Below, in pieces: positions 21,933 to 63,249 of a stretch of DNA of 64,000 nucleotides. The notes under the pieces were generated by a model. It had not been told where the DNA came from. It saw only the letters and a list, made by a program, of their open reading frames with translations, and searched no databases. Location: assembly GCA_032718475.1 (NCBI GenBank), contig JAUCBJ010001029.1:6208-70207 (forward strand), written 5' to 3'. The translations under genes were made by a program, and so were the position numbers. The stretch is from Nemertoderma westbladi (Eukaryota > Animalia > Xenacoelomorpha). The first letter of the stretch is position 1; the number at the start of each line of letters is the position of its first letter.

Positions 21933-22394
21933 CCTCAACGTCATTTCCCTCTTTAATGTGTAAAATGGCATATTTCCACATTAAAGAGGGAAATTTGAAA
22001 TTGCCAAAGAGCAAATAAAAACTGTTTGTAAAGGACTTGTCTTTAAAAGCTTTGGCTGTTTGGTTAAGTCGGAAAAAGCCGCAGCCAAATAGTTTACCGG
22101 TAGTTATCCAAGTCATTGCATTAAGATTCAGTCGGAGGCGGTATCTGTCAGTCTGTTGTTGAGAAACCATTTCAATTGTTATATGAAATAAACTCTTATG
22201 CTTATCAACCATTTATGGAATATTTTCGCGAATTGTGAAGGGTGATTACATACATACTGACATAGGCCTATACATAGGCTTACGAACTAGCCTACTGAAC
22301 TACTAATTAGACCCTGACAGCTTGAGTCTGAGAGCGGCAGACAACGTACATTATACTGTTAACTGGCACTTTGTTTTAACCCATAATCGGCACA

Positions 22395-23602: not shown

Positions 23603-24319
23603 GTGAGTTACATTGAATATTCCAATGGGTGAGTTTTATTGGATTAATATACTCGTGGTGTTTTTATTCTGTGACGTCGATATTATGTCCCGTCAATATT
23701 TTGTACCTTAGATTTTTTTTGCACTCCACTGTCCCTCAATCTCATGGAGTTGGCCATCACCTAACCTTTACTAATTTTGGTAACAATTAGTTTATCTACA
23801 TAACTATCAGACTATTAATTTAATATATATTTTTTAAGTATAGTTACATCCCCAATCGCAATCGGGATAAATTATAATTGATATTATCTAAGTTAATTAT
23901 AACACAATAATTACTACAATAACCATACTGAATTAATACCATATGGACTATTAAAATATGCAAAGATATAAAACACTAATGTTAAATGAAATATTGTTTA
24001 AAATGAAATAGATATAAACATAAAAACATTGTATAGGCATTCAATGTAAATATTAATATTAATTTGTTGCATGGCATGATTGACGAACCTTAAAACCTTT
24101 ATTAATTTAATATTGTGGCGAGTCACCTAGAAAAGCGGGTTAACAGGTCAAAATCACCTTTCGAGAAATACAAAGTAAAGATTTAGAAGTTTAAATGGGG
24201 GTCACTAATTCCTTAAGAACGGTTGATTTTTCATTCGTGGTGCAGATTTTTATGAGGATTTCAAAACTTCCAACCGTTTGTTAACAGCTAATGTAGTTTA
24301 CAAGTTATGAGTGATAATA

Positions 24320-39104: not shown

Positions 39105-42100
39105 TGTGACGGGATCTACGGATCCCGGTTTATCCGTTTGGGTTTTCTGCCCACGCGTCCCCGCCGTGTGTGAAAGGTAAAAGAGTTCTGATGTCCGGTT
39201 ATATGTATAAGGTATAATAATCTGATATATATGTAATATAGTATGACACAACAGGTACCGGTAATATAGGTATGATGGCGGTAGCGGACGGTGACAGAAG
39301 TCCCCGTTCCACCCTACTGATCCGACTGAGTAAACTGAATAACTGACCGGTATGATTACTGGTAACTGGTTATATTGCACGGTGGCCTTATTGCTACTCA
39401 ATCGATGCCTTTCCCCCCTCTGATTGGTTAATACCCCTGTTGGCACCCTTTGCCCCCCTCTGAAGTGCTTCCCTTCGCCCTTGCTGTTCTCTCTCTTGTC
39501 AGGGGAGTAACCCCTGACCCTTATTGTGTGTGTCTCCTTTGGGGCCTATTGTCCCCGTTTACTGGGCTGACACGAGGTTGATTGGTAATCAACCTCGTGC
39601 TCCCAATATTGCTTTATGGCTCACTCTATGGGTTTGGGTTAGCGGAATTGGATAAGCTAACACTCCCCCCCATGCTATCTTCCCGGTGAGAAGATAGCAT
39701 CCAACTCAAGTGCGCTACAATTCCGCTGGATCCCGATCTAGCATCGGGTGTGGGGTGGGTATATTTTTTCGGAGTCGGCTTTCCAGGCCGCTCCCTATGG
39801 GTATGATGTCACTACCCTCTGGCGTCTCGTGTCGGGCCGATCGTGCGCTTCTCTCACACAATTTTTGTTTCCCCAACACTCTCACCACTCTACTCCAACT
39901 CTCTAACTCAACTCGCTCTCTCCCCACTCTTACACTCTCCCCACACCTGAATCGCACTCTAACTTCTCGCCAACAGCTCTTCTCACTATCTCCTTTCTAC
40001 TCTCTGCCACTCCCTAAGGCCCTAATCTCTAATGCTACCCCTGTGCTATCATACTATCTACCTACTGCTTACTAACTCTAACTATCTAACTAACTCTGCT
40101 AACTACTAACTCTTACTACTCCTAGCTCTAACTGAGAGCCTCTAACTTTCTACTGACTCTAACTCTCTACTAAGTCTAACTAACTCCTACTAGCTCTCTA
40201 CTTCTACTAACTCTACTTGACTCCTCTGAGTCTACCAACTCTGCTAACTAGCTCTACTAACTCTACTCCACTAGCTCTGTTAACTCTACTCCACTAGCTC
40301 TGCTAACTCTACTAACTAGCTCTACCAACTCTACTCCACTCTTCTAACTACGTGGCGCTTGCGGTGCCCACAACCACTCTACTATATGGCACCCTATGTG
40401 CCCTCTCTGCTCTACTCTACTACCTGGCACCCTATGTGCCCTCTCTACTACACTACTACCTCTCTAACTCTACTACCTGGCACCCTATGTGCCCTCTCTA
40501 CTACACTACTACCTCTCTAACTCTACTACCTGGCACCCTATGTGCCCGTCTCTACTATTCTACTCTATCTCTAACTCTACTACTTGGCACCCTATGTGCC
40601 CTCCCTACTACTCTACTCTATCTCTAACTTACTACCTGGCACCCTATGTGCCCGTCTCTACTCTTCTACATCCCCTTTACGTCTCATCGCCTACACGTGA
40701 CGCTCTGAGTGCCGGCAGAGTGGGTACGTTAATTATGTGAACTACTACTGACTCTACTAACTCTACTAACTCTCTTCTAACTCTACTAACTCTTTTTTGT
40801 GCCCGGCACCTCTTGTGCACGGCACCTTCTAACTCTACTAACTCTCTACGTGGCGCTAACGGTGCCCACAACCACAACCGGTACTACGTACCCTCTTACT
40901 AACTCTACCTCTATCTACGTGGCGCTAACGGTGCCCACAACCACAACCGGTACTACTACGTACCCTCTTACTAACCTCTAACTCCCACTAACTCTAATTA
41001 ACATACCCTGCTCTTACATCACACACATCATCACGCCCGTGCCCCACTAAGTTCAGCGCATTCCCTACTAACTCTAACTACGTGGCGCTTACGGTGCCCA
41101 CAACCCTCTACTGCTACTACTTTCTATGTGGCGCTTACGGTGCCCACAACCATTCTACTACTAACTCTACTCTGCTAACTCTCTACTAACGGTACTACGT
41201 ACCCTCTAACTCTTACTCTAACTAGCGGTACTACGTACCCTCTCACTACTCCAACTCCACTAATTGACGGTACTACGTACCCTTTAACTAACTAACTAAC
41301 TAACTAACTCTTACTACCTAACTTCTACCTACTCTATTATTTAATTATTTTCTTATTCTAATTAAATAATTATTTTATATTTTGTGCGTGGGAAGGGCGT
41401 CTCGCCCTCATTCCCACCCCCCTCAGTCCAAAACTTTGGACGACTAAAAACTCTCACGTGCCCCTTCTTCCGGTAGGCACTCTCCTGCTGCCCTCCTATA
41501 CGTCCTCTAACTCTTCGCCACACTCTCTTCGGTGCTACCTTTGCTGGCCTCCCCCTTCGTATGTGCGCTGGCATTAAGGCCCTCGACGACCCCCGCTCGT
41601 CCCTCGGTATACGCGGTGTCTGCCCGTGCAATGCCCCCTCGCACTGTGTCAGCCGTGCGTGTGTATGCAACACGCCTCCTTCTACTTTCCCGACTCCCTT
41701 ATGTTTGCTAATGGGCTTCTCTGCCCCTGGTTTAGTCCTTTCATATCCTTTCCCTTTCCAACACTCTCCGGATCTGTGTCCTTTTACCACACATCGATGA
41801 CATAGTCCGTTTGCGTCTGTGTAGGCTACACGATCTCGTTTGGGCAACGCTTGCCAGTACTTGCAACTCCTGGTCTTATGGGTTCCGTCCCGATGTAATT
41901 GACATTGGAATCCTGGGTTATAGCGTTTCCTGTATAGTCCTTCACGTATCGCGCTTAGGTTTATATGTACCGATTTAATGTTTTGGTTGTCTAGACTCGG
42001 CCTACTGGGTATATTGGGATTGTTTTTATTTACGGTGTTATTTTCTTTCTGTCCCTGCCACGGTGTGGCCCTGCTACCAGCTAATTGTGGACTAGCAGTC

Positions 42101-42532
42101 CCCTGTACGGCCGCGTGTGGTATTGACTGTCCGCACGACCTGCTCTCGTCCAGGGAGTTCGATGTTCTTGCTCCTATCGGGGTACATTGTCGATATTGTG
42201 ATGGGGGAATGTCACCCTGTCCCCTCCCAGCCGGTATGTTTGGTACTGGGGTTGATGTTAATATATTGGGGCCCATACGTCTATCTCCAATAACTCCCCC
42301 CTCCCCTGGATATATGTTATGTCCCTGTGTATTATTATAGTCATGCTGCTGTACCGATATAGGCCTACCTACCTCTCGCCTACCTACCGGTATGTACTCC
42401 GCGACTTCCGGGTTTAATTCCGTCGTTCGCGCTACCCCATCGCCTACTCTATCTCTCCCAGCATGGCCTATAATAGTATGTGCAGTAAGGCCTACAGTAT
42501 GTCCTTCAGTCTGCATGTGCCCTTCCGAACCT
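39105..42532 (-). mobile_element. Truncated LTR-retrotransposon-like insertion with a gag-like ORF and no pol
   Basis: Begins TGTGAC at the satellite junction; ORF 41362..42516 has tandem zinc-knuckle-like motifs; hairpin-rich non-coding part; no paired LTR found. Confidence 0.55.
41362..42516 (-). CDS. gag-like protein fragment (BEL/Pao-like knuckle spacing)
   Basis: CQLHRDGTHKTRSC...RV....GLCHRCVVKGHRSGEC resembles the first two BEL gag knuckles; the N-terminus abuts the satellite. Confidence 0.55.
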   Translation of the reverse strand: MQTEGHTVGLTAHTIIGHAGRDRVGDGVARTTELNPEVAEYIPVGRREVGRPISVQQHDYNNTQGHNIYPGEGGVIGDRRMGPNILTSTPVPNIPAGRGQGDIPPSQYRQCTPIGARTSNSLDESRSCGQSIPHAAVQGTASPQLAGSRATPWQGQKENNTVNKNNPNIPSRPSLDNQNIKSVHINLSAIREGLYRKRYNPGFQCQLHRDGTHKTRSCKYWQALPKRDRVAYTDANGLCHRCVVKGHRSGECWKGKGYERTKPGAEKPISKHKGVGKVEGGVLHTHARLTQCEGALHGQTPRIPRDERGSSRALMPAHIRRGRPAKVAPKRVWRRVRGRIGGQQESAYRKKGHVRVFSRPKFWTEGGGNEGETPFPRTKYKIII

Positions 42533-44201: not shown

Positions 44202-45808
44202 TGTTCGCGGTATTTCAACTTTCCATAACACGAGTTGAATATTTTTGTATTTATTTAAAATTGATTATTCCGATATTACTACTGGGTGCGGGATCATGGG
44301 TTTTGGGCACGTTCAATAAACTGGGGGCGATTTATGGGCGAACTTTGGGGCAACTTACAGGGTACGGGAATAATTTCATAGTTATAAGGGCCAGGGGGGA
44401 TGGAAAATGCAAGCAGTATTCAGGTTAGCCTGAGTACTATTAGGCCCTGGCCAACTTCCTGCTGCCTGTAGGGGTGGATTTGGTAATGCGCCAGGCCTAA
44501 AGGACAAGGACTGCCCTTAGCGGTCCCTGGCCAACGGCAGCTACTACGAGACTGAAAAGAACTCGGAACGCTGACTGCTTGTGTCAGGGATTTGCGACGG
44601 GCACCGACGGCCCCTTAGTAGCCAAGCCGTTCTGGTTCTCGATGATCGAACCCCGGGGTTCGTGAGGGGTGGAGCGGACACGCGAACAGGTGGCCAACTA
44701 ACGACTGCCCCCTGACCTAAGCCGTACTGGTTCTCGATGACCGATCCCTTCGGGGTTCGTGAGGGGTGGGACGGACATGCGAAAGGGCTGGCCACAGGAC
44801 TGGTTTGACAAGGACTGCCCTTAGCGGTCTCGGGTCAACGGCAGCTACTACGAGCCTGAAAAGAACTCGGAACGCTGACTGCTTGACTGGGATTTGCGAC
44901 GGGAACCGACGACAGACCCCTTAGCCAAGCCGTTCTGGTTCTCGATGATCGTTCCCTTCGGGGTTCGTGAGGGGTGGAACGGACACGCGATGGGGTCGAA
45001 AGACAAAGGACTAGACTCGACTAGACTCTACTGGCCTACCGACTGTTCGGAGCAGTTTCTCGGCTGCCGAAGCGACTACGAGCCTGAAACGGACTCGGAA
45101 AGCCTAGGTGGTTGGGTTTCTGTGATGAACTGACGGACCCCTAGCCAAGCCGTTCTGGTTCTCGATGATCGAACCCTTCGGGGTTCGTGAGGGGTGGAAC
45201 GGACACGCGAACGGGTCCACCGACACGACAGACTCCTAGCCAAGCCGTACTGGTTCTCGATGACCGAACCCTTCGGGGTTCGAGAGGGGTGGTACGGATA
45301 CGCGACAGAGTCTACCGACTGGACCGACCCTTAGCCAAGCCGTGCTGGTTCTCGATGATCGTTCCCTTCGGGGTTCGTGAGGGGTGGAACGGACACGCGA
45401 CAGGGTCGACCGACACCGACACTACGGCACTAGGACTAGGACCGAGGGAAAATCTGGGGAACATTAGGTAGGCTAAAATTCTGAGCGAACAGCGGGTTAT
45501 TAAATAATATACCGTAGGGATTTATATTATCGTGTATACTTATTGTGAATATTTGGTGTATATTGATTTGGGGAAGCCCAAAATTATTCTTAATCAAGGT
45601 TCAATATTGTTGAACAAGGTTCAACAGAGTTCAGTTACATTAAAGAGTATATCCAACTAATGCAGCTTTTCTCAACCGCAAACTTGCATCTTAGAAAATA
45701 TTCCCTCCCCACAATCAATATCCGGTGACTGGCCGGGGCTCGGTGGTCTGTTAAGTCACGTCTCCAGCATCGGCGTTTTTCCCCCCTGGTGTAGGAATAA
45801 CGGCAACA
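44202..45808 (+). repeat. 5' LTR
   Basis: TGTTCGCGG...GGCAACA; direct repeat of 56759-58365. Confidence 0.97.
44610..45410 (+). ncRNA. Array of six about 90-nt kink-turn/UUCG stem-loop modules in the 5' LTR (putative cis-acting RNA)
   Basis: Cores start at 44621, 44716, 44924, 45144, 45239 and 45334, with compensatory changes in the stems. Confidence 0.7.
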
Positions 45809-46020
45809 AAATTAAGAATAATTATCGTGGTCAACTTCAACTGGTGGAAGTTGAGAATCCTTCAATACTCTTCAAAAACTCTCTACGTGCTTGCCAGCAC
45901 CCACTACGAGGAAACTCTGGTATTTGAGTTGAGACAAAGTCGTGGTTTAATTAATCAGCAAACTCGATCTAACCAACTCGTAGTCGGCAGATCACATATT
46001 TGGAGAGTTGTTAACAGGGA

Positions 46021-46212
46021 ATGGAAGTATCGATCACACCCATTGATATAATTCAAGTTGAGCCAGGAATCTGGCACGTCGAAGTTGAGGTACAAGGAAC
46101 GAACGTCGGACGATTCAGGATTACTGTTCGGGTGGTTCAAGCTGAGTACAATACCTACGAGGAACTGTTTTACGACATCGCGTATCTCGCCATCGACGAG
46201 GCGTTACAATGA
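46021..46212 (+). CDS. 63-aa upstream ORF overlapping the gag-pol start (ATGA)
   Basis: ATG at 46021; its TGA overlaps the gag ATG at 46209; protein-like composition. Confidence 0.4.
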   Translation: MEVSITPIDIIQVEPGIWHVEVEVQGTNVGRFRITVRVVQAEYNTYEELFYDIAYLAIDEALQ

Positions 46213-49200
46213 CAACAAATAACGTATCCGATACCGACGAGATGGATCACAACACAGACTCGGAAGCCGACGAGGTACCAAACGTCAAAAACATGACCCG
46301 TCGGTTAGGGGCTCTTAAAGGCGGAGTAACCCGAGCGTATCAACGGATGGAGAAACAACTCAAGGGAGTCAAAACCCCCCTCAATGAGGTACAAACTCAG
46401 CTTCAAAGTATCCGAAATATCCTACAGCGGTACGAAAGAATGATACAGGCGTACCAAGAGCTCGTTCCCCCCACCGATCTGGAAAACTACCCCAAGCTGG
46501 AAGAACACGTTGTACATCTAGATGGGTTCCGCAAACAACACCGGAGGACCCTCAGCCTTGTGAGAGGCTATGAGGAACAGTATTACAAGAGGGCTGAAAG
46601 AACAGACGCGGAATCAGTACGATCCTCCAGCATCAGGACAGGAGTACATCGCAAGAGAATGGGGTCCACCAGAAATCAGCACTCCAGCGCTAGGAGCGAG
46701 ATATCCGGCTCAGCGCGCAGTTCTCAAGGGGCGCCGCCACTCCGAGACCAACTGCGAGAGCGGAAGGCATTAGCCCTCAAAGCTCGGATGGAAGATGAGT
46801 ATATTCAACTGCAAGCCGAGCAAGATGTATTAGCTGCAGAAACCCAAAGGCGAGAGGCCGAACAAGCGGCCGAACGGCAGGCCGAACAACGTGAACAGGA
46901 AGCCGAACAACGCAGGCGAGAGGCCGAACAACGCAAACACGAGGACGAACGACAGGCCGAACAGCGCAAACACGAGGCCGAACAACGCAAACAGGAGGCC
47001 GAACAACGCGGACGAGAGGCCGAACGGGAGATCGAACAACGTAAATGGGAAGCAGAAATGCGTAAACAACACGCCGAGGCCCAAGCAATTCTCATCCACA
47101 AAAAGAACGCGGATATTGCAAAACTCGCGGAATACGAAGCCGCACTTATAGAACGAGATATTCAACTCTACGAGGACTGGGAGAGGGATATAGATCAGGA
47201 ATATGAACCAATCCCGGTACCGGAATTAGAAAAGTCATTTATACCGACAGCGGCGAAACTTCCGAAACCCGAAATCCCGCCTACCAAACAGTCTACGCTA
47301 TCGGCACAAGCACCGGTGTTCCATCCACCACCGGCTACGTTAAAGAATGAGGAACCCTATTTCCCATCCAACACCACGACAGCGAGTGTACCCAAGTACG
47401 AGCCTGAAAAGGACTCGGAACGGGACGCCACTCCCCGATCAAACAACCCATTTACATCAACACCACTAACTCGCAGCCGCGTCATTATTAAAACTCCGCC
47501 TATCATTGATCCATCAAGTATGGGAGTGAGTGCCAATAACTATAACCCTCCGAGTCACTCCAGTTCAGACGATGTCAGCATCATCCGGGCGTTGGAGAAC
47601 CGCCTTGCCATGCCGAAGATGGAGATTCGCACCTTCGAAGGAGATCCCGTCGATTACCTCAGATTCAAGAAACGGTTCTTTGCGCAGATTGGATCAACGG
47701 ACATAGCCGACGCACAGAAATTGGTATATTTATCGCAATACCTGGGTGACAAACCCCGCAGAATTGTTGCATGTTTTGAAGGAGGTTCTCATGAGGCATA
47801 CTATGACGCATGGAAAACTCTAGACAAAAGATACGGAAATACCGGAACTATAATTAATAAAACTCTAGAGAGACTGATACAGGATGCGGGATCACTAGGG
47901 GACCCACAGAACATACAGGAATTCTCCGACTCTATGAAAGATGCCTATTATACTCTGAAACCCTTAAATAAGGAGGACCAGGTGAACAACATTCTAAACC
48001 TCCGACAGATCGCCCGGAAGTTCCCCGGATGGCTACAAAGTAAGTGGGCTTATAAATGTGTAGATCTCTGGCGCAGACATCCAGATCGAGATCCTAGCTT
48101 CCTTGAAATGTCGGCATTCCTGGATGATATCTCCGAAGCCATGAATGACTCGATGTTTTCAAAACAAAGTCTCGCAAAGTTGGACGGAATAGAGAGCAAC
48201 TCTAGGAGTAAGATAACCCCTCCGAAACCGAGATTCCGCCCCCCACCGGTAAGTACGATGGCCATTACCATGGCCGAGGATTCCGACGACGAAGACTACG
48301 AGGAACCGACATCCGCTGAGGAATGGGCATGTTATCTCGCGAGTTGGGCACCCGAAAGGGAAGGCATCACAAATTCCCTGCTCTGTCTCTTCTGTGGGGA
48401 GAAACATAAAGTGGAATTCTGCAGGAAGTTTCAGTTCGCCGAACTCGTCCCACGTTTCGAGGCGATAATGAAACACCGAGGATGCTTCCGGTGTCTTGGA
48501 ACAGGTCACTACGTTCGGGATTGCGACCAAAGGTCGTGCTGTGCTGTCTGTAACGACCAATGCCATCACACGCTCCTCCACATCCCCGCGAACTTCGACT
48601 TTACTACCCTCCCCTTTCGGATCGAAGCCAGGCGAAGAGGAGAAACAAACCACGTCTTCAAAGGAACCCGGACAACCCAACGGAGAGAAACCAACCCGTT
48701 TAAAATCTCCACCGATACACCACAAGTAACAAATATTTCGGCCACGATTAATCTTATAAATCGCCGCTACATGGTTTTCGCAAAGGTAATCCCAGTAAGG
48801 ATCCAAGGAGTCGGCAAATCTTTGACGACACTCGCATTCCTCGATAACGGGTCCGACGGAACCATCATTGACCGGGATTTTCTCGAGCAACTCGGCCTAG
48901 AATATGAGCCTTGTAAACGGCCCATACAAACCATCACCGATAACAGAGAGGTAGAGTCCGGGGAGGTGCAACTCCAGATGGAAGGAGTGATGAAGGGCTA
49001 CGAAACGGCTAAGTTAACCATAAAGAACGCCTTGGTACACACAGACCTCCGGGTGCGATTCCGACAATCAGCCGAGTACGCCCCCCTCATACAATTGGAC
49101 CGGGACGATGTAGACCTGAGGTGTCCGCAGTTGGACGTAAACCGTATCACCCTACTGATCGGACTTGATACACCGGAACTACAAATCCCCACCGGAGATA

Positions 49201-51695
49201 TCGCCCGATCTATAAACCAGGATGACGGATTTTATGCTGAACGAACAATAATGGGATGGACACTCTGCGGCATTAAGGAGGAAACCACGGACACCTATAC
49301 CTACCTTCCCAAATGTCAGATTAAAGAGAATGTAACCTCCGTGGGTTACTGCTCAGCTTCGGATCTCGACGAGGATTTGTTTCTGGAAACCGAGAAAACC
49401 CAACGAGAGATGACAAAATATTTTAATTTGGAGACCCAGGAGTTCGCGGAAAAGGACGAAAATCCATCCGAAGAGGACCAATATTGTATGGACGTTCTCG
49501 ACCAGGCCACGTTTAAAGACGGACACTGGAGTTCACCTATGTTATGGAAGGACCCAAACAAACCAATGGCAAACAACGCCAGCATGGCACTTAGGCGACT
49601 TAAAGGGATTCTACGCCGGTTGAATGACCAACCCGAGATAAAGGAGAAGTATAACACCGTAATCCAAGGATATCTCGATGATGGATTAGCAGAAATGGTA
49701 CCACGGAACGAACTGCAAGGTGGTAAAAGAACATATTATCTCCCGACCCACTATGTAGTAGAAGCCCGCAAAGGTGGGAAAATCCGAGTGGTAAATGATG
49801 CTGCCGCTATATACCAGGGCGAATCCCTAAACAGTCAACTTTATACGGGACCCAACATATATAGCACACTCATCGGCGTATTGATCAGGTTCAGGGAAAA
49901 CCGGGTAGCATTCACCTGTGACATCAAGGCCATGTTTCATCAAGTTCGTACATTACCAAGAGACTCGGACTGTCTACGTATCCTATGGACGGATAAAACG
50001 CTCACTCAACAGGAGATTAGCCAACTCACGATAAAGGACGTAGACATAATGCGTATGGTCGTCAGGATCTTCGGCGCTAAGGACTCGCCGGTAGCATGCA
50101 GTGACATGCTAAAGAGGACGGCAACCATGTGCGAAAACGAGTTCCCTCCAACCGTCATAGAAACCATTCGACGATGCTTCTACGCGGACGACGGATGCGC
50201 TGGCGCGGATAATGTAGATGAGGCGTATCAGCTAGCAATGGGGATGGTAGAATGTCTAAAGAAAGGAGGGTTCCCACTCGTGAAGTTCAGATCCCACGAC
50301 AAAACACTTATGGAGAAGTTTCCGGAGGACATCCGGCTGGAAAATAACAAGATGTATTCGGAGGATGTGGAACATCGTGTACTCGGGATTGAATGGGACA
50401 TAGAATCAGATGAATTCATCTTCAAATATAAACCCCTACCCAAGCCTATGACAAAAAGGGGATGTTTGTCGATAAAAAGTGCAATCTTCGACCCACTAAA
50501 TTTCATATCTCCAGTAACCTTGGCCGGAATGAACCTGATTAAGGAAATGTGGATAGAAGGACTGGGATGGGACGAAGAGCTTCCCCCATACCTTAGCGTC
50601 AAATGGAGAAAATGGACGGAGCAACTCGAACATCTACATCTTATGCGGATACCTAGACCGTTCTTCCTCGATAAACTGCCCACCGATATCTTCCAGCTCC
50701 ACACCTTTTCGGATGCTTCAAATACCGGAATCGGCGTAGTAACCTTCTTACGGAGACTAAGTAGCGATGGAAACGGCGATACAAGCTTCTTATTCTCCAA
50801 AGCAAAGACGGTATCCGGGGAATTCGTAGCAACGATTCCGAGACTCGAGCTACAAGCTGCAGTTTGGGCAGTAAGACAGAATCGCATGGCCATGCGGAAC
50901 CTACGGATCCCCATAGAATCTCAACACTTCTGGGTAGATTCGAGTATAGTTCTCTATTATCTCCACTCTCCATCACGGCGTCACACCACGTTTGTTGCAA
51001 ACCGAGCCACAGAGATTAAACAGTGTACCGGCCGAGAACAGTGGCATCACGTAAACGGGAAGGAAAACCCAGCGGACTTATCAAGCCAAGGCGCCACCCC
51101 AAAACAACTCGGTAAAAGTAAACTCTGGCTTACAGGCCCGGAATTCCTACGGCAGCCACAGTTAACATGGAGTACCCGATTCGACCCCGAACTCGATAGC
51201 GGAAAATACTCCGAGGACGATAAAGAGATTCGTAAAATCCATCGAAGCAACGCGGTGGAAATTTATAGTTGCCTGACTGAGCCTGCAAAGGACTCGGGCA
51301 GGCACTATAATGTCGCGACGATCACTCAACTAGCGACGTCTTTACATCGGTTGATCGAGCGAACTTCATCCATGAGACGGCTCGTCCACCACGTTATAAC
51401 CCTTCGCAACTTCCTACGGTGGAAAAACAACAAACCGATAGTTCAACGGAATATACAAGAACTCATTATCGCGGAGAAGTGTATTGTTAGATATGTCCAG
51501 AAAGAAAGTTTCCCCGATGAATGGGAACAACTTAGTGCGGGCAAAACGTTGAAACCGGACAGCCCAGTCTACCAACTAAGACCAATGATGGGAGAGGACG
51601 GACTGATCCGACTGAATACCCGGATGGCAAACGCCCCGGTCGAATATGAGGTTAAATACCCGGCGCTTCTGCCCGCTTCTAGCTTCTTCTTCTAG
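46209..51695 (+). CDS. BEL/Pao gag-pol polyprotein (gag with 3 zinc knuckles, protease, RT, RNase H), terminating before the integrase
   Basis: FEGDPVDY..F...F (DUF1759-like); CLFCGEKH, CFRCLGTGH, CAVCNDQCHHTLLH; FLDNGS protease; YYLPTH..KIRVVNDAA, DIKAMFHQV, FYADD RT; LHTFSDAS, TIPRLELQAA, WVDS, NPADLSSQG RNase H. Confidence 0.96.
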   Translation: MTTNNVSDTDEMDHNTDSEADEVPNVKNMTRRLGALKGGVTRAYQRMEKQLKGVKTPLNEVQTQLQSIRNILQRYERMIQAYQELVPPTDLENYPKLEEHVVHLDGFRKQHRRTLSLVRGYEEQYYKRAERTDAESVRSSSIRTGVHRKRMGSTRNQHSSARSEISGSARSSQGAPPLRDQLRERKALALKARMEDEYIQLQAEQDVLAAETQRREAEQAAERQAEQREQEAEQRRREAEQRKHEDERQAEQRKHEAEQRKQEAEQRGREAEREIEQRKWEAEMRKQHAEAQAILIHKKNADIAKLAEYEAALIERDIQLYEDWERDIDQEYEPIPVPELEKSFIPTAAKLPKPEIPPTKQSTLSAQAPVFHPPPATLKNEEPYFPSNTTTASVPKYEPEKDSERDATPRSNNPFTSTPLTRSRVIIKTPPIIDPSSMGVSANNYNPPSHSSSDDVSIIRALENRLAMPKMEIRTFEGDPVDYLRFKKRFFAQIGSTDIADAQKLVYLSQYLGDKPRRIVACFEGGSHEAYYDAWKTLDKRYGNTGTIINKTLERLIQDAGSLGDPQNIQEFSDSMKDAYYTLKPLNKEDQVNNILNLRQIARKFPGWLQSKWAYKCVDLWRRHPDRDPSFLEMSAFLDDISEAMNDSMFSKQSLAKLDGIESNSRSKITPPKPRFRPPPVSTMAITMAEDSDDEDYEEPTSAEEWACYLASWAPEREGITNSLLCLFCGEKHKVEFCRKFQFAELVPRFEAIMKHRGCFRCLGTGHYVRDCDQRSCCAVCNDQCHHTLLHIPANFDFTTLPFRIEARRRGETNHVFKGTRTTQRRETNPFKISTDTPQVTNISATINLINRRYMVFAKVIPVRIQGVGKSLTTLAFLDNGSDGTIIDRDFLEQLGLEYEPCKRPIQTITDNREVESGEVQLQMEGVMKGYETAKLTIKNALVHTDLRVRFRQSAEYAPLIQLDRDDVDLRCPQLDVNRITLLIGLDTPELQIPTGDIARSINQDDGFYAERTIMGWTLCGIKEETTDTYTYLPKCQIKENVTSVGYCSASDLDEDLFLETEKTQREMTKYFNLETQEFAEKDENPSEEDQYCMDVLDQATFKDGHWSSPMLWKDPNKPMANNASMALRRLKGILRRLNDQPEIKEKYNTVIQGYLDDGLAEMVPRNELQGGKRTYYLPTHYVVEARKGGKIRVVNDAAAIYQGESLNSQLYTGPNIYSTLIGVLIRFRENRVAFTCDIKAMFHQVRTLPRDSDCLRILWTDKTLTQQEISQLTIKDVDIMRMVVRIFGAKDSPVACSDMLKRTATMCENEFPPTVIETIRRCFYADDGCAGADNVDEAYQLAMGMVECLKKGGFPLVKFRSHDKTLMEKFPEDIRLENNKMYSEDVEHRVLGIEWDIESDEFIFKYKPLPKPMTKRGCLSIKSAIFDPLNFISPVTLAGMNLIKEMWIEGLGWDEELPPYLSVKWRKWTEQLEHLHLMRIPRPFFLDKLPTDIFQLHTFSDASNTGIGVVTFLRRLSSDGNGDTSFLFSKAKTVSGEFVATIPRLELQAAVWAVRQNRMAMRNLRIPIESQHFWVDSSIVLYYLHSPSRRHTTFVANRATEIKQCTGREQWHHVNGKENPADLSSQGATPKQLGKSKLWLTGPEFLRQPQLTWSTRFDPELDSGKYSEDDKEIRKIHRSNAVEIYSCLTEPAKDSGRHYNVATITQLATSLHRLIERTSSMRRLVHHVITLRNFLRWKNNKPIVQRNIQELIIAEKCIVRYVQKESFPDEWEQLSAGKTLKPDSPVYQLRPMMGEDGLIRLNTRMANAPVEYEVKYPALLPASSFFF

Positions 51696-51715
51696 CGCCA
51701 CCAATCACTCAAAAG

Positions 51716-52738
51716 ATGGCCGACTTACCAGCCACCCATCTACAAGCGGATTCCCAGCCATTCTACGTCACCGGGGTGGACTGTTTCGGACCGTTCACGG
51801 TTATTGAACGACGATCCAACATCAAATGCTGGGGAGCCATCTTCACCTGCCTGAGGTCTAGGGCAATTTACCTAGATATCGTGGTAAATCTGACACAACA
51901 CGCATTCATCAACGCTCTGCGTCGGTTCGTGGCGAACAACGGGACATGCCGCCACATGTATTCCGATAATGGTACAAACTTTGTGGGAGGAGAAAGGGAA
52001 CTCAGAGAGGCGATCGAGGGATGGTTTACCGATAACACCGCATCCCAAGTCTGGAAGGAACACCAGATACAGTGGCACTTCCAGACCCCCTTAGCCCCCC
52101 ATACGAGCGGGGTATGGGAGAAACTGATCGACCTCGTGAAACGATCCATGCGCGTCGCTCTAGGCGATACCCGGGTAACCCATGACACCCTCCGCACAAC
52201 ATTCTGCGAGATCACGGCTACCCTGAACAACCGACCTATTGTCCCTATCCGCGACGACCCCACAGACCTGGAGCCCCTCACTCCTAACCACCTACTGGGG
52301 AGACCCAAAACCCACGTTCTCCCGGAAACCATGTTCCCGGATCCCAACGAGATCGCGAAGCATACAAACTGGAAAAAGGCCCAAGCGTTGGCAGCGCATT
52401 GGTGGAGAATTTGGGCCCAGGAATATCTCATAACCCTCCGGACCAGGAGAAAATGGAACAACACCTACCGGAACGTCGCAGTTGGCGACATGGTACTAGT
52501 TAAAGAAGATCTCAAAGACCGCGTTCACTGGCCTGTGGCGCGGGTCGTGACCATACACCCAAGTAAAGACGGACTTGCGAGGACTGTGACGATACGAACG
52601 GCAAAGGGCCACTACCAACGCCCTATCCAGAAGCTGTGCCTTCTTGAAGGCAATGATAGTGGTGACTCTACGAGAGGTGATAAGATCCCTACTCAAGATC
52701 CTGCTGTGGACATTGGTGACAATTACAAACCCGTGTAA
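51716..52738 (+). CDS. BEL/Pao integrase core and C-terminus, out of frame with pol and lacking the HHCC zinc finger
   Basis: MADLP..PF..TGVDCFGPF, SDNGTNFVG, GVWEKLI, NNRPI, LTPNHLL, WPVARV..DGLARTV..RPIQKL. Confidence 0.93.
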   Translation: MADLPATHLQADSQPFYVTGVDCFGPFTVIERRSNIKCWGAIFTCLRSRAIYLDIVVNLTQHAFINALRRFVANNGTCRHMYSDNGTNFVGGERELREAIEGWFTDNTASQVWKEHQIQWHFQTPLAPHTSGVWEKLIDLVKRSMRVALGDTRVTHDTLRTTFCEITATLNNRPIVPIRDDPTDLEPLTPNHLLGRPKTHVLPETMFPDPNEIAKHTNWKKAQALAAHWWRIWAQEYLITLRTRRKWNNTYRNVAVGDMVLVKEDLKDRVHWPVARVVTIHPSKDGLARTVTIRTAKGHYQRPIQKLCLLEGNDSGDSTRGDKIPTQDPAVDIGDNYKPV

Positions 52739-53016
52739 CCCTTCTCATCATGTTGACAAACTCCTTTAAACTGTGATTTATCGACAACGAGTTATGGACC
52801 CCCCTTAAACCAACTGTAACCACGCAATGGTATTTGTGTTTCCTCGTGTGTTATGTGGAGTCCAGCGTCACCCTGCAGATGTTTCGACTGACGCAGGGTC
52901 GTTTATGTATTGTTTACCCTGATTTTGGTCATCGGGACCAACGATATTGGATTATTGGAAATGGAAAAGATTTGAAGTGGAATTCATTGTATTCATCGCA
53001 GTATGTTATGTTGTCC

Positions 53017-53427
53017 GTTGCGTGCGCAGTTCGGGGCGTAGGCGGTGTAACGAGTCCAGCTGTAGATCCCGGATTGCCGCGCAACACCCCCTCTATCCCG
53101 TTATTCTGGTGGGTCCATGGTGCATCCACGTGACTTCGACGATAGAGGGTTTTATGTTTCTCAGTCGCGTTATTCTGGTGGGACCGTTACGTGGATTTTG
53201 GGGCGTAGGCGGTGTAACGAGTCCAGCTGTAGATCCCAGAATGTTGCGTAACCCCATCCCACATGACTTCGTCGACTGAGCTTTATGTTGTTGGGAGTGT
53301 TATTCTGGTGGGTCCCTGGTGCATCCACGTGACTTCACTCCTAGCGTCTTCATTGTCCGTTACGTGCGCAGTTTGGGGCGTAGGCGGTGTAACGAGTCCA
53401 GCTGTAGATCCCAGATTGCCGCGTAAC
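53017..53427 (+). ncRNA. Triplicated structured RNA module between the integrase and the extra ORF
   Basis: Invariant core GGGGCGTAGGCGGTGTAACGAGTCCAGCTGTAGATCCC closed by covarying stems at 53017-53085, 53186-53252 and 53359-53427. Confidence 0.6.
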
Positions 53428-53990
53428 ACCCCTTCCACGACAAAGATTAACCAAAGAAAATGATTGAATATAGTTGGAAATGATGAAAAGGATCAGACAA
53501 CTCTGCTATAAACCTGAATGATGATGCGTATGCTGATGAAAATGTAATGATGCGCACCCTGGTGTTGCGCTTATAACCAATGATGATAGCCGGGGGGCTA
53601 TAAACCCAATGATGATGTGGAAATAAATAAATGTGAAATAAATGGTGGAAATAAATGTGTTGAAATATATGTGGAAATAAATGAAATGAAATGAAATAAT
53701 AATGAAATGAAAAAAGACAAAAAAAAAGGTATAAAAGAGGTCAAAGAAAAGAATTGGAAAAAAAAAGGACAAAAAAGTCATAAAAAACTGGTTGGATATT
53801 ATGTATAGCTATAGTAACTGTAAATGCTGAATGTATTAGCAATAAGATGATAGATGCCTATATAGCAATGTTATTTTATAAACTGAATTAAATAAAAACT
53901 GAATTATTCTGCTATCGCTATATGCTATAGTTTCAGACTTTCTGGACTTATAATTAACTGAACTAATTTGTAACGGATATAATCGTAAAT

Positions 53991-56591
53991 ATGGACCCAA
54001 ATCGCCAAATTATCGGCGAATTACGTAACACGGTAGATCTACTGGAATATTCGCAACCCGGATCCCCTGACTTTGATACGAATTGGAGCACCCTACTAAA
54101 TGAGAATGTGCGAGTCATTAAATTCACCGGGCGAGAGGGACCGGATTCTAAGAATCTACGAGCCCTCCGGTTAGCCGATGCTAGTACGAGACTGAAAAGA
54201 ACTCGGAACGCAAAGGCAACCGGAGGGGACGATTCGTCGTTTTGGGAAACGTTCCGACAGAGCGTCTACAGATCCCGATGTTTGATCTACGACAACGAGG
54301 GAAACGCGACGCCCACCTCGAAAGCGATTACGTTGGCGAGATGTCAAAGTTTCGTCGACGACAAGAGTACGTACCTCGCCCACTGGGGAAACCTGTCGGA
54401 GTGTACGGCGACGCTTCGAGAGGAACGCATATCGATTATCCAAAACCGCGACGACTACCAGGAAAAGTACGGGGCGAAAGAATACGGTCGATCCTTAGTC
54501 GTCGTCCTCGGAACCCTGGACGGTTTGGTACTGGTGTGCCGAATATTCCCGACACCCAGACAGGAAGTGCAGGCAGCCGGAGCGATCTGGTTGCTGCCTC
54601 CGGAAATCCAAAAGATCCTCTTCGACTTCGACGTCATTAAAATCGGGTCGGATATCAAGGCGGACGTCCGGAACGACTACGCGAATGCTCCTACAGGAAG
54701 AAACCGACGAGACGACCTCAACGCCCTTAGCCATTGCATCGACACTCAAACGCTACTAGCCTGGTTACGATTCGCCGAGTTCATGCGAGGATTCCAAGAG
54801 GTGAGACCGACGAAATCCGGGATCGGCTACCTCGCTGTGCTCAACGGCGGTATCGACTTCAAACCCCAGAAATTCCGGGACTATAATAAAATATACGGTG
54901 GATACCCGGGATTGGAAATAAAGAGCGAGCGAGAGGGTCGATGGAAGGACGTTGATCGGAAATGGACGATACACCAAAGATGGGAGAATCCCGATCGACG
55001 GAACTACGTTTACGTCGTTATGGAATGCTACACCGTCGCTAAGTTTATCTGTAAAACTCTCGATAACCTTATTACGGCGGTCCCCCTTTCCTTCGTCGAC
55101 TACGACTGGAATGAGGTTATAAACCACGCGTTTAAAGCGGTCGAGAACATTACACCGGGAGAATCGAAAACGCCCGCCGTTATCGATTCCTGGGACGAGA
55201 GCGGACCTTACGACATCCCTACGATTACCGAACTTCTCGGTGCGGAGGAGCCTCTGATCTCCTCGGAAGGGGAAGAGATATGGCTAAACGAGGGTGTTCT
55301 ACTCTCCACCCCGAAGCGACAACTCGAGCCGGAGGCCGCGTACGGACCGGCCGCCAAACGGGTTGCCTCGGCCGAACCGATGAAGAGAGCAGGCGTCTAC
55401 ACCCCACGCGGCTCCGGTAGCCCCGCGAGAGAGGTAGCCACTACAGCCGCATTGAGCGACTTTGGCGACATATGCCAACGGTTATCCCCGTATCCTTTCC
55501 CGGGCGGCGAAGATTGGTCGTCGGAGATTCCGAGTACCAGCCAACAACGGACCCGCTCAGCGATACTGGTCGAGGAAGGCCCCAGCGATGCGCCGACACC
55601 CGACGATCTCCTCGGTATCCCTCCGTCGAAAACCCCGGCACCTCTTCGCCGACCAGCGGTAGCTACTACACCCGCCGTTCCTCAGGACCCTATGCGACTA
55701 ACCCGTTGGTACGCCGAGCAAACTGAATGGATCCACCGCCAGAAACGGTCATCCGAGTTGAGACCAGCGGGACACAAAGAGGGTTATCGAAGCGAGAACA
55801 TACTACGCAAAAGCCTAGCATTCCGCGGGCTACCGACCACCGAGAATATTCCGAAGAGCGACCGACTACTCGAATACTACGCCGGCGTCCCGATTCCGAT
55901 ATTCACCGGTCGAGAGATGCAGTTGGAGGTATGCGGCGACTGCGGTTCGGAGCAGTGCCCACGCAGCAGAAGGAATCGGGTTACCGATTCTTGCCTCCAG
56001 CTCCTCGGGATACTCTATTGCCCATACTGCGCGATATCGGGCCACGACGTTTCGGTCTGTCCGATCCTTTATAACCTCTGCACCACGTGCGGTTTCCGTG
56101 GACATTCCGCTAGCCCCCGCTGCTATATTAAATGTCCAACCAAGGACGTTACCGCTATGGGCAATATGGTCATGTTTGAGACATACGCAAACAGCCATTT
56201 AAAGACCAAGTTTCGGAGAAACGCTCGGAATATCGCGCAGGAGATGGCGTGCGGATATTTCTCCTTCCCGGAACGCCTCCACACGTCGGCCTCGCTACCC
56301 TTCCATTACGTGGATCTGCTACTGAGCGCCGGATTATTCGGTCCATTCGAAGTTATTAGACGATTATATTCGTATAAAGAGGAGTTCGGTGATGGAGAAT
56401 GGTTCCTAGAGGCACGCAACTCCGAGTTGCAAAGACGAACCGACATGATACCGTTGCCTTCGAAAGGAAGAGCCGCCAGGAGACAAGCCGAAGCGTTACT
56501 CACAATGGATGTTGACGCTCCTCTACCAGCCATAGCGATCGATGAGAGTCGACGGGCGAAGAGACGAAAAGCGTACCAGAAAAAGAAGTAA
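53991..56591 (+). CDS. Extra retrotransposon ORF (866 aa): degenerate DEDDy 3'-5' exonuclease-like domain, Pro/Ser-rich linker, Cys/His clusters, basic C-terminus
   Basis: LPPEIQKILFDFDVIKIGSDIKADV, CIDTQ, SGIGYLA, W......YVYVVMECY parallel WRN/EXD-family motifs; CGDC, CPYCAISGHDVSVC, CTTCGFRGH; intact 2.6-kb ORF inside the LTRs. Confidence 0.8.
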   Translation: MDPNRQIIGELRNTVDLLEYSQPGSPDFDTNWSTLLNENVRVIKFTGREGPDSKNLRALRLADASTRLKRTRNAKATGGDDSSFWETFRQSVYRSRCLIYDNEGNATPTSKAITLARCQSFVDDKSTYLAHWGNLSECTATLREERISIIQNRDDYQEKYGAKEYGRSLVVVLGTLDGLVLVCRIFPTPRQEVQAAGAIWLLPPEIQKILFDFDVIKIGSDIKADVRNDYANAPTGRNRRDDLNALSHCIDTQTLLAWLRFAEFMRGFQEVRPTKSGIGYLAVLNGGIDFKPQKFRDYNKIYGGYPGLEIKSEREGRWKDVDRKWTIHQRWENPDRRNYVYVVMECYTVAKFICKTLDNLITAVPLSFVDYDWNEVINHAFKAVENITPGESKTPAVIDSWDESGPYDIPTITELLGAEEPLISSEGEEIWLNEGVLLSTPKRQLEPEAAYGPAAKRVASAEPMKRAGVYTPRGSGSPAREVATTAALSDFGDICQRLSPYPFPGGEDWSSEIPSTSQQRTRSAILVEEGPSDAPTPDDLLGIPPSKTPAPLRRPAVATTPAVPQDPMRLTRWYAEQTEWIHRQKRSSELRPAGHKEGYRSENILRKSLAFRGLPTTENIPKSDRLLEYYAGVPIPIFTGREMQLEVCGDCGSEQCPRSRRNRVTDSCLQLLGILYCPYCAISGHDVSVCPILYNLCTTCGFRGHSASPRCYIKCPTKDVTAMGNMVMFETYANSHLKTKFRRNARNIAQEMACGYFSFPERLHTSASLPFHYVDLLLSAGLFGPFEVIRRLYSYKEEFGDGEWFLEARNSELQRRTDMIPLPSKGRAARRQAEALLTMDVDAPLPAIAIDESRRAKRRKAYQKKK

Positions 56592-56758
56592 TGGATTGGG
56601 ATATTCCAGGAACATTTATCGAACATTTATTTTTATACAAACTCTAGGCCAAATTAATTAAAAACTATGCAATATTAAATTTGGGATTTTTTATATTGGG
56701 AATGACCTACGCAAACTCAATCGACCGACAGACTTCACGAAGGTCATTGGGGGGGGAC

Positions 56759-58365
56759 TGTTCGCGGTATTTCAACTTTCCATAACGCGAGTTGAATATT
56801 TTTGTATTTATTTAAAATTGATTATTCCGATATTACTACTGGGTGCGGGATCATGGGTTTTGGGCACGTTCAATAAACTGGGGGCGATTTATGGGCGAAC
56901 TTTGGGGCAACTTACAGGGTACGGGAATAATTTCATAGTTATAAGGGCCAGGGGGGATGGAAAATGCAAGCAGTATTCAGGTTAGCCTGAGTACTATTAG
57001 GCCCTGGCCAACTTCCTGCTGCCTGTAGGGGTGGATTTGGTAATGCGCCAGGCCTAAAGGACAAGGACTGCCCTTAGCGGTCCCTGGCCAACGGCAGCTA
57101 CTACGAGACTGAAAAGAACTCGGAACGCTGACTGCTTGTGTCAGGGATTTGCGACGGGCACCGACGGCCCCTTAGTAGCCAAGCCGTTCTGGTTCTCGAT
57201 GATCGAACCCCGGGGTTCGTGAGGGGTGGAGCGGACACGCGAACAGGTGGCCAACTAACGACTGCCCCCTGACCTAAGCCGTACTGGTTCTCGATGACCG
57301 ATCCCTTCGGGGTTCGTGAGGGGTGGGACGGACATGCGAAAGGGCTGGCCACAGGACTGGTTTGACAAGGACTGCCCTTAGCGGTCTCGGGTCAACGGCA
57401 GCTACTACGAGCCTGAAAAGAACTCGGAACGCTGACTGCTTGACTGGGATTTGCGACGGGAACCGACGACAGACCCCTTAGCCAAGCCGTTCTGGTTCTC
57501 GATGATCGTTCCCTTCGGGGTTCGTGAGGGGTGGAACGGACACGCGATGGGGTCAAAAGACAAAGGACTAGACTCGACTAGACTCTACTGGCCTACCGAC
57601 TGTTCGGAGCAGTTTCTCGGCTGCCGAAGCGACTACGAGCCTGAAACGGACTCGGAAAGCCTAGGTGGTTGGGTTTCTGTGATGAACTGACGGACCCCTA
57701 GCCAAGCCGTTCTGGTTCTCGATGATCGAACCCTTCGGGGTTCGTGAGGGGTGGAACGGACACGCGAACGGGTCCACCGACACGACAGACTCCTAGCCAA
57801 GCCGTACTGGTTCTCGATGACCGAACCCTTCGGGGTTCGAGAGGGGTGGTACGGATACGCGACAGAGTCTACCGACTGGACCGACCCTTAGCCAAGCCGT
57901 GCTGGTTCTCGATGATCGTTCCCTTCGGGGTTCATGAGGGGTGGAACGGACACGCGACAGGGTCGACCGACACCGACACTACGGCACTAGGACTAGGACC
58001 GAGGGAAAATCTGGGGAACATTAGGTAGGCTAAAATTCTGAGCGAACAGCGGGTTATTAAATAATATACCGTAGGGATTTATATTATCGTGTATACTTAT
58101 TGTGAATATTTGGTGTATATTGATTTGGGGAAGCCCAAAATTATTCTTAATCAAGGTTCAATATTGTTGAACAAGGTTCAACAGAGTTCAGTTACATTAA
58201 AGAGTATATCCAACTAATGCAGCTTTTCTCAACCGCAAACTTGCATCTTAGAAAATATTCCCTCCCCACAATCAATATCCGGTGACTGGCCGGGGCTCGG
58301 TGGTCTGTTAAGTCACGTCTCCAGCATCGGCGTTTTTCCCCCCTGGTGTAGGAATAACGGCAACA
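56759..58365 (+). repeat. 3' LTR (with a second copy of the structured RNA array, about 57167-57967)
   Basis: Direct repeat of 44202-45808, preceded by the PPT. Confidence 0.97.
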
Positions 58366-61173: not shown

Positions 61174-61928
61174 TATGTAATATCTGTGAAAACTGTTTGT
61201 TTGGGATTGTGTTTCTGACGTCAAAATAAAACAAAAGCATTCATCCTCGCTAAACGTTTTGTTAAGGGGGATTTCCTGGTCGCTGATTTCATTACAAACG
61301 TCAGTTTTCACTTTTAACGAAAACTATTATGTCTGTCTGTCAGTCTGTCTGTCTGTCGGTTAAACGAAATGTCTGTCAAAATATAAGGACATCATACCAA
61401 CTAGCTAAAACTTATTTATTATTTGTTGCGGTTTTCTTGGTCGCTGATTTCATTTCCGACACCAGTCTCCATATTTGACGGCAACCTACTGGTGGTTCTG
61501 TATGTCGGTTGTTCTGTCTATCCAGCGATCTGTCTATCTATAGGCAGACAGACAGACTGTCTGAAGCCCAATCTTTGTTGCCCAAACTTCAGATTCTTTA
61601 TAAACGAATGACAAACCTTTTTGAAACTTTGTTGCAATCATCGGACAGTTATTTACTTAATTCGAATAATAATTAGCATTATTTCACTTGTCACCTTGAA
61701 AAAGGGATAACTATTTTGTGGATTTTAGATGGACATGACGACTTCAATGACTTTTTTCGAATACTTAAAATAATATTCAAGGCAAGTATTATACCTCATT
61801 GCAAAGGTAAATAAATTCTCTATTAACTTTTATTTTGAATAACTCAAAACTCGACCAGATGACCAGTTACCCCTTTTCTAGGTGACAGACATTATTACTT
61901 ATTGTAACTTTTCTTATTTTCTCACCAG

Positions 61929-63249
61929 GGCCGCGTCTTTGGGGAAGTCGTTCGTAGCCAATCACGACCCCGATGTGTACGTGCGTACGTGTCGGTTACT
62001 ACGGGTGATGAACGCGGTACGTCACCACCTTATCGGTATACCGCTAACGGTGACCCAGACGCGACGGCTCACCTTACCGGTGCTGGTGGACCGACTGGTG
62101 CACCGCAGACACTTCCCGCTCGCGTTGGAGATCTGTCGCTGGATGAGGCTGGGCGACGGAGCCGGCAAGGTGCGGGTACTCACTCACTGGGCGGTCTACA
62201 AGATCGGCCAATCGCGACTCAGCGAGTCGGATATATCGGACGCGATCAGCAAGGCCGTGGTCCCGGGGGTTTCCTTCTCGGAGCTCGCGATGGTCGCGTT
62301 GGACCGGGGCCGACGGGACCTGGCCATCCGGTTGGTCGGACGCGAGCGTCGTGCCGCCGACCGGATCCCGCTCCTCGTCCGACTCGAGCAGTACTCGATG
62401 GCGCTGCAATCCGCGTTGGATTCCGGCGACACCGAACTCGTCTACTTCGCGCTGCTCGCAGTGAAGGAGCGACGCAAGCAGGAGGAGTTCCTCCGCGCGT
62501 TGCGTGCGCACCCCGAGGCCGAGCGGTTGTATCTGCGGTGCTGCGGGAACCCCGGACTGGCCCTCGACGTGCACTACCAGAACGACGCCCACCGCGAGAT
62601 GGCGTTGTGCCGACTGGAGGAGGCCGAGAGGGAGACCGGCCATCAGTCTAGGTTGGCGGCGTTGCGCGGCGCTCTGGAGGAGTTCAACCGGGCGTCCCCA
62701 GGGGGCGCTGAGTTCAACTCGAGGTGCACCGAGGCTCACATCAACCTGCTGGGCTGGCAGCGCAGTCTGGAGACGGAACTCCGTAAACCCTTTATGGATC
62801 TAAGTCTTCTCGACACTATCCTTCGACTCCTCGTTCTCGGTGTCACTAAAACCGCGGAGACCACCCGCAAGGAATTCCGAGTCTCCGACCGACATTTCTG
62901 GTGGGTTAAAATTCGCGCGCTTTCCGAGCTCGGTGATTGGACGGAATTGGAGAAGTTTTCCCGCTCCAAGAAACAGCTGCCCATCCCGCTCGCCTCCTTC
63001 ATACACGTTTGTATCGGCCGCGACAACAAACTCGAGGCCGAGAAGTACATAAATCGGTTACCGGGGGAACAGAGGTCCCGGCAGTTGGCGCGTATCGGTC
63101 GCTACTCGCAAGCGATCGCCGTCGCCGTAGAACAGCGCTGTCTGCCCGATCTCGAGTTCATTGGGGTCCGCGCCGGTGTCACTAACGCCGAAGTTAAGGC
63201 GGCTGTGGCCGCAGCGAAGGCTGGGCTCACAGCAGCCCCGCGACGGTAG
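61929..63249 (+). CDS. VPS16: VPS16 exon 2
   Basis: Polypyrimidine tract and CAG acceptor; AASLGKSF..LRVMNAVR..GIPLT..HWA..SGDTELVY..LSLLDTI..EFRVSDRHFWWVKIRAL..DWTELEKFSRSKK matches Vps16_C; TAG stop at 63247-63249. Confidence 0.95.

Follow-up and report, generated by a model that had tools for sequence, protein, structure and literature searches.

A nested array of two triplicated RNA modules between pol and an extra reading frame of a BEL/Pao retrotransposon, a candidate docking tag for its full-length RNA

The marking of unspliced RNA for export or packaging is poorly known in the LTR retrotransposons of invertebrates. The closest described systems include the MusD transport element (MTE), the RTE of IAP and the CTE of MPMV, non-coding multi-stem RNAs that vertebrate retroviruses and retrovirus-like elements carry in their 3' part; MTE and RTE sit just after pol. 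As far as the available parts of two papers describe them, the MTE is a multi-stem RNA of 412 nt, and the CTE is duplicated and binds NXF1 at two internal loops (PMC11379458, PMC4338338). HIV RRE/Rev and HERV-K RcRE/Rec combine a structured element on the unspliced RNA with an accessory protein from a spliced message. Another comparison is provided by the bdelloid LTR elements Juno and Vesta, which are Ty3/gypsy-like and not BEL/Pao. Both carry a post-pol ORF3 with an RNase D-like exonuclease domain, in some cases with Cys/His motifs; in the accessible text, ORF3s of LTR elements are typically translated from spliced messages, and what captured DEDDy ORF3s do is called an open question (PMC5408684). 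Finally, the RSE lies directly behind the stop codon that precedes a very long 3' region, with a minimal form of 155 nt in the part of the report available (PMC2925335).

The locus studied here is an array of repeated hairpins in a BEL/Pao retrotransposon, which most likely works like the known transport and packaging elements of retroelements without belonging to any of them, to judge by analogy. Like MTE, RTE and CTE, it does not code for protein, has several stems and occupies the 3' part of an LTR element; it differs from them in being made of two unlike modules, each triplicated and one nested in the other, in a predicted structure. Among the transport elements covered by Rfam, to which the comparison was confined, none is alike in sequence. 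The array can also be likened to RRE and RcRE, except that here the protein proposed as partner, with putative binding, is the 866-aa product of the extra ORF, which is exonuclease-like and has zinc knuckles. Juno and Vesta have in common with this element an extra ORF after pol with an exonuclease-like domain; their catalytic residues are intact, whereas the second ExoI acid is lost in the present ORF, and the available portion of their description mentions no RNA array (PMC5408684). Like the RSE, the array lies behind a stop codon with an unusually long 3' region after it, here 5.6 kb from the pol stop, but the RSE, as described in the accessible text, abuts the stop codon, whereas the array begins 280 nt behind it and is a repeat of hairpins (PMC2925335). 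In the literature searched, which takes in few of the subscription papers, there was no description of such an array, nor of a BEL/Pao element with a DEDDy ORF3 or a Rev/RRE-like system.

The host element lies in the window, the whole stretch of 64,000 nucleotides that was analysed, and its parts are collected in Table 1. It is a young BEL/Pao LTR retrotransposon: its LTRs begin with TG and end with CA, a 5-bp target duplication flanks it, Pfam recognizes DUF1759, Peptidase_A17, an integrase core and DUF5641, and the two LTRs show 3 mismatches over the 1584 nt compared. The family is multi-copy, with 1971, 869 and 88 contigs on 52500-54300 in three DNA runs of one organism. This copy looks defective at the integrase, because the gag-pol ORF stops early, the integrase continues in another frame, and an integrase zinc-binding domain, carried by many of the 120 homologues listed, was not detected here. 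The break at 51676-51716 falls between two short TTCTAG repeats. At the 5' end (45809-45860), a TGG about 20 nt past the LTR end, possibly the start of a primer-binding site, is followed by a short inverted repeat.

Table 1. Features of the retrotransposon and of its hairpin array; positions are those of the window
Feature	Position	Strand	Description
Whole LTR retrotransposon	44202-58365	+	14.2 kb
5' LTR	44202..45808	+	1607 nt, TG...CA, CTATG target-site copy before
gag-pol ORF, BEL/Pao type	46209..51695	+	DUF1759, zinc knuckle, aspartyl protease, Peptidase_A17; ends before integrase core
Integrase core and DUF5641	51716..52738	+	Frame differs from preceding ORF
Module A1	53017..53085	+	Long stem, GUA/GUA internal loop, 10-nt apical loop with UGUAA start (predicted)
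Module B1	53090..53149	+	Own outer stem, invariant internal-loop core 53100-53137, short apical arm (predicted)
Module B2	53160..53280	+	Core strands 53169-53182 and 53258-53270; apical arm is A2 (predicted)
Module A2	53186..53252	+	Nested in B2
Module B3	53292..53343	+	Core 53299-53336
Module A3	53359..53427	+	A hairpin
A-rich spacer	53436..53990	+	555 nt, 44% A
Candidate splice acceptor TTTCAG	53931..53936	+	Sole TTTCAG in 52739-53993; putative function
Extra ORF	53991..56591	+	866 aa; DEDDy/EXD-like domain about residues 134-370 (remote likeness); CCHC zinc-knuckle region about 645-785
G-rich polypurine tract	56749..56758	+	Precedes 3' LTR
3' LTR	56759..58365	+	CTATG follows

The array covers 425 nt and consists of three A hairpins and three B stems, with pol and the integrase on its 5' side and the extra ORF on its 3' side. 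Along the sense strand the modules are ordered A1, B1, B2 with A2 inside, B3 and A3. An earlier note on this DNA, made from the letters alone, had located the A copies and B starts at 53100, 53169 and 53299; its coordinates and sequences all proved correct, and its proposal that A2 is grafted into B2 as the apical arm is reproduced in the predicted fold. A 38-nt core, starting at 53033, 53200 and 53375, is identical in A1-A3, and a 26-nt piece of it occurs three times in the window but in none of 100 shuffles. A model built from the three A copies found no fourth in the window, 13 of its 16 matches having E 0.52 or worse. Module A is predicted to fold into a stem of about 20 bp with a symmetric GUA/GUA internal loop, followed by a short stem with a bulge and by a loop of 10 nt beginning with UGUAA. 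The predicted B fold is a fixed internal-loop core with a free outer stem below and a free apical arm above, and an arm of 7 nt or of 70 nt is accommodated. The linkers between modules (53003-53012, 53150-53159 and 53282-53291) have in common the word UUAUGUU, a possible single-stranded protein site.

Folding against shuffles distinguishes the two strands. The sense strand of 53005-53440 reaches -171.8 kcal/mol with z -3.43, whereas the antisense strand has z -1.63; under DNA parameters the two strands are equal (-61.4 versus -61.8), which points to structure at the RNA rather than the DNA level. Most 120-nt windows are unremarkable, only that over A3 reaching z -3.3. In module A, all 73 of the 73 cells of 25 pairs over three copies are standard-paired, with three two-sided and two one-sided pair changes. 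This pairing and these changes are matched by 16 of 500 shuffles, and slid-structure controls are only 36-44% paired; the structure was derived from the same three sequences that scored it, so the score leans in its favour. Of the 69 positions, 4 are unlike between A1 and A3, and these make up two compensatory pairs. Four random substitutions yield two compensatory pairs in a fraction of 6.5e-5 of 400,000 trials, and four random changes in A keep all pairs in 10.5% of trials. The covarying stems reported in the earlier note (GUUGCG/CGCAAC versus GUUACG/CGUAAC; UUCGGG/CCCGGA versus UUUGGG/CCCAGA) are both real. The B outer arms are alike between copies at only 2-9 of 12-14 letters, but each 5' arm finds its best partner in its own 3' arm: the three cognate duplexes, all of them, have -14.1 to -15.7 kcal/mol, and all six non-cognate ones only -0.6 to -8.5. 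Taken with the strand comparison, folding and covariation uphold the earlier suggestion that the arrangement makes sense at the RNA level and support a modular, selected structure of the sense strand; the evidence favours selection on the A/B array as RNA structure.

Downstream of the array, the extra ORF begins 563 nt past its end and belongs to no family in a Pfam search. An exhaustive search with its first 400 residues found three remote homologues (E 2e-6 to 4e-4), while a word-indexed search yielded none and a search with the homologue alignment returned only P0001 itself. This homologue has both the N-terminal domain and the zinc-knuckle region in common with the extra ORF, and its knuckles match retroviral nucleocapsid in PDB. 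For a profile of the four N-terminal domains the sole PDB match is EXD2, at E 0.2, and the Atlas gives PF01612 for the extra ORF at 0.91 with 154 shared features; all hits of the C-terminal Atlas search were under 0.9. Two structure predictions are of low confidence (pLDDT 33 and 36), and a fold search with the prediction had no match at E 0.001. PDB and Atlas thus agree on a remote, weak likeness to DEDDy exonucleases. The ExoI motif reads D-x-E in the three homologues and D-Y-Q in the extra ORF, and this loss of the second acid suggests that the protein may be a non-cutting RNA binder. In the first 310 nt of the ORF, four of the five family variants listed fall at third codon positions, and the frame looks maintained. 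Viral and metagenome contigs searched for the modules and the extra ORF held no relative with DNA, the module pattern had no match in public genome contigs, and the genome contigs gave one weak match, L001, with 34% over 59 residues and without the downstream flank.

The tract between array and extra ORF had been noted as a long, A-rich, unstructured spacer. Its A-richness (44%) is borne out, but it is not unstructured: it contains small hairpins and, between them, a third repeated unit, UAUAAACC-AAUGAUGAU, present three times. Three of the four RUGAUGA (C-box-like) words at 53480-53617 belong to this unit; 0.17 such words are expected, and none of 3000 shuffles reaches four. The spacer also has 32 AUGs against 12.7 expected, a count that none of 3000 shuffles attains. 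The putative acceptor TTTCAG lies 55 nt upstream of the extra ORF, and the 54 nt that follow it are AUG-free. The abundance of upstream AUGs, together with the AUG-free stretch past TTTCAG, is what one would expect were the extra ORF translated from a message shortened by splicing or in another way, the usual source of ORF3 products; for splicing, a single hexamer is the evidence. No sequencing run was recorded as RNA containing the element, and one presumed RNA run had no coverage over the array, results that are uninformative on expression.

These features suggest a function for the array as a multivalent cis-acting docking tag on the full-length unspliced RNA, serving export, protection or packaging, a proposal to which we give an even chance of being right. 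In size and place the array agrees with the known elements of this kind. The extra ORF would be translated from a shorter RNA, joined at or begun near the TTTCAG acceptor, so that the array would stay only on the long gag-pol/genomic RNA. The variable outer stems would act as scaffolds that present fixed non-canonical loops, and the loops read would be the GUA/GUA and T-loop-type apical loops of A and the internal loop of B. Stems that vary, loops that stay and a free B apical arm suggest the pattern of a recognition site. A protein would do the reading. It could be a factor of the host for export or stability, as for CTE and MusD, or the element's own exonuclease-like zinc-knuckle protein, as in Rev/RRE, and we regard the two as about equally probable. 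Triplication would raise avidity, and A and B, given their 3:3 occurrence, may in addition dock with one another. A related possibility is that the array shields the RNA from the nonsense-mediated decay to which its place behind the pol stop might expose it (PMC2925335). A compact modular RNA tag would result if the loops prove to be a new motif for protein binding or self-docking. The natural duplicates in the element already separate scaffold from recognition loops beside a candidate partner protein.

Other hairpin families have been amplified in the same element. Each LTR (44618-45403 and 57175-57960) contains six copies of a 70-nt hairpin with a GAUGA/UGA loop, which we take to be k-turn-like, and five of the six copies have a UUCG tetraloop. 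These hairpins are candidate sites for L7Ae-family proteins, judging from the loop; in Rfam they have no match at gathering score, and one weak match falls in an LTR. A further hairpin, motif C, has a GAAA-type loop above an AGUA/GAA or ACUA/GAA (loop-E-like) internal loop and occurs at 44548, 44852, 45080, 47400, 51279, 54188, 57105, 57409 and 57637; each LTR has three copies, gag-pol two and the extra ORF one. The reading frames differ between its copies in ORFs, and so do the outer stems. Such repeated amplification of structured modules fits an RNA built as a protein scaffold. In a bolder form of the docking proposal, the exonuclease-derived zinc-knuckle protein would bind the A/B array, motif C and the k-turn-like hairpins as a Rev/RRE-like or Gag-independent packaging system, with the A T-loops docking on B loops to fold or dimerise the genome. 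We consider this form tentative and on the whole doubtful; if true, it would be a case of 'complex' retroelement RNA control that arose independently of retroviruses.

As an alternative to docking, the array could steer RNA processing at the border of pol and the extra ORF, by suppressing or promoting the use of AAUAAA and TTTCAG or by stalling a 5'-3' exonuclease to leave an extra-ORF RNA. The layout is suitable, since the array stands 190 nt ahead of five clustered AAUAAA signals and 500 nt ahead of the acceptor, and exonuclease-resistant RNAs are often duplicated. The spacer has six AAUAAA where 2.3 are expected, a number reached by 2.5% of 3000 shuffles, but this is a slight excess in a tract of 44-56% A. 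Moreover, an RNA begun at the array would still bear the 32 upstream AUGs, and Rfam finds no match. The sole pseudoknot candidate, a 6-bp pairing between the A loop and a B strand, is at chance level, as 33% of shuffled loops match equally. We judge a processing role unlikely.

Neutral duplication would explain the array without function: slippage and template switching of the reverse transcriptase would have copied two hairpins, and recent homogenisation, together with inverted-repeat repair, would have left cores that seem conserved and stems that seem compensatory. The element is young and rich in internal repeats, template switching in an inverted repeat can yield compensatory changes without selection, and the covariation is informed by three paralogous copies and within-family variants, not by independent lineages. 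Variation within the family bears on this point. The variants listed for B3-A3 (53282-53446) come from four DNA runs on three samples and omit the known A1/A3 differences; none of the seven substitutions breaks a predicted pair, with three keeping a pair as G-U or G-C and one at a bulged C; another hits a linker, and the remaining two fall in the A apical loop, on its 3' half, and spare the UGUAA pentamer. Three of them hit the 38-nt core, so the core, described in the earlier note as invariant, is identical in this copy but not across the family, other members of which vary at 53379, 53394 and 53397; G>T at 53394 amounts to 17%, 17%, 28% and 2% of depth in the four runs. Listed places with variants at >=5% (at least 5% of depth) number 85 over 52500-54300 in X1 (about 4.7 per 100 nt) and 4 in B3-A3 (about 2.4 per 100 nt), only a modest drop. 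The array also holds just 2 of 40 variants listed (binomial 0.002), a figure set aside as evidence because these 40 belong to a longer table and repeats dilute shares. Some contigs join the start of B1 straight to the spacer (3 in X1 and 8 in X2); copies without most of the array thus exist and may be dead copies. A joint skipping 362 nt was discounted as a deletion, A1 and A3 being near-identical. These deleted forms and loop variants agree with a neutral origin. However, the modules do not follow one another as in a tandem (A, B, B(A), B, A), three unrelated outer stems pair with their own partners, and the changes spare the cores (P 0.0015-0.0085 for the unbroken 38-nt run, given 8-10 variable columns). 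Perfect-repeat repair, in addition, does not make one-sided changes that keep G-U pairs. Neutral duplication is, in our estimate, quite unlikely.

The array might instead be a self-cleaving ribozyme, new or similar to twister-sister, with docking of the A loop into the B internal loop and a cut that frees the extra-ORF part; this we hold to be very unlikely. The earlier note had seen a loose resemblance to the twister-sister loop, and there is indeed likeness in the apical loop, a G-U-G-Y-A-A...G-U-C sequence of T-loop type. Compared with the SL4 loop (G29-C37, with a U30-A34 pair and two extruded bases), the first five and last two letters of the A loop are alike except for one C/U, and three bases are extra. 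In the available part of its description, the conserved bases of twister-sister are divided between the SL4 loop and L1, joined through a three- or four-way junction, with L1 strands G5-C6-A7-A8-G9 and G59-C60-U61-C62-A63 (PMC5660989). Neither L1 word occurs on the sense strand of 53000-53450, and the predicted fold contains no three- or four-way junction, A being unbranched and B2(A2) one long irregular helix. Only the loop resembles twister-sister, Rfam yields no ribozyme match at E up to 10, and a shared UGNRA motif of T-loop type accounts for the likeness. In the accessible text of 10.1101/2022.12.26.521914, the T-loops of FMN and cobalamin riboswitches have the consensus UGNRA, placed on the 5' side of the terminal loop, and the UGUAA at the start of the A loop conforms to it. 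In favour of a ribozyme, UGNRA begins only one of the 143 other loops of 7-14 nt predicted for the internal region of the element, twister-sister docks a similar loop into an internal loop, and A and B occur 3:3. The T-loops of the riboswitches have seven bases with two trailing or bulged, whereas the A loop has ten with five trailing. Module B holds UAU and GA, as in a URU/RA receptor, with a stem between them that pairs uncleanly. A different apical hairpin, with a stem closing directly on the pentamer, comes out 8 kcal/mol less stable. For B, inspection by eye spoke against a k-turn or a SECIS element, as there is no bulge with tandem G-A pairs. As for the hammerhead ribozyme, its core words are CUGANGA and GAAA. 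Both are absent from the sense strand of the array, CUGANGA from either strand. Cutting, furthermore, would sever the inter-LTR template three times, and a multi-copy family presumably must keep its template whole.

Another option raised in the earlier note is an internal ribosome entry site, through which the extra ORF would be translated off the full-length RNA; it is highly improbable. A structured, GC-richer block upstream of a second ORF and followed by an A-rich tract would suit this role, but the structure is not next to the start codon, and the 555 nt between them, with their 32 AUGs, are no AUG-free path. The Rfam check proposed in that note gave no match in the window at gathering score; in 52700-54000, with E up to 10, it gave seven weak matches, none at gathering score and none to an IRES or ribozyme. 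Six of the seven are C/D-box families on the spacer and one is a microRNA on the minus strand. A tRNA search found none. Least probable of all is a DNA-level role, in which the exact repeats, lying ahead of an AT-rich tract with four TATAAA (53507, 53599, 53730 and 53877), would bind transcription factors as part of a promoter inside the element that serves the extra ORF; compensatory stems, G-U pairs and the nesting of A in B would stay unexplained.

The element is inserted inside a satellite, and a 389-codon frame in the satellite at 41362-42531 (minus strand) has a Cys/His-rich gag-like stretch and no Pfam match at E 0.01. Further upstream, at 15640-19401 (minus strand), lies a frame of 1253 codons with a long Gly/Leu/Glu-rich repeat, also free of Pfam matches at E 0.01; it is flanked by inverted repeats near 15048-15321 and 19466-19732 and is possibly a DNA transposon. 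Two halves of a Vps16 gene, at 22380-23606 and 61882-63249, flank about 38 kb in which a long satellite with 13/19/32-nt units, LINE fragments and the complete retrotransposon are found, satellite and retrotransposon being in sense orientation, and a GTGAGT donor follows the first Vps16 half.
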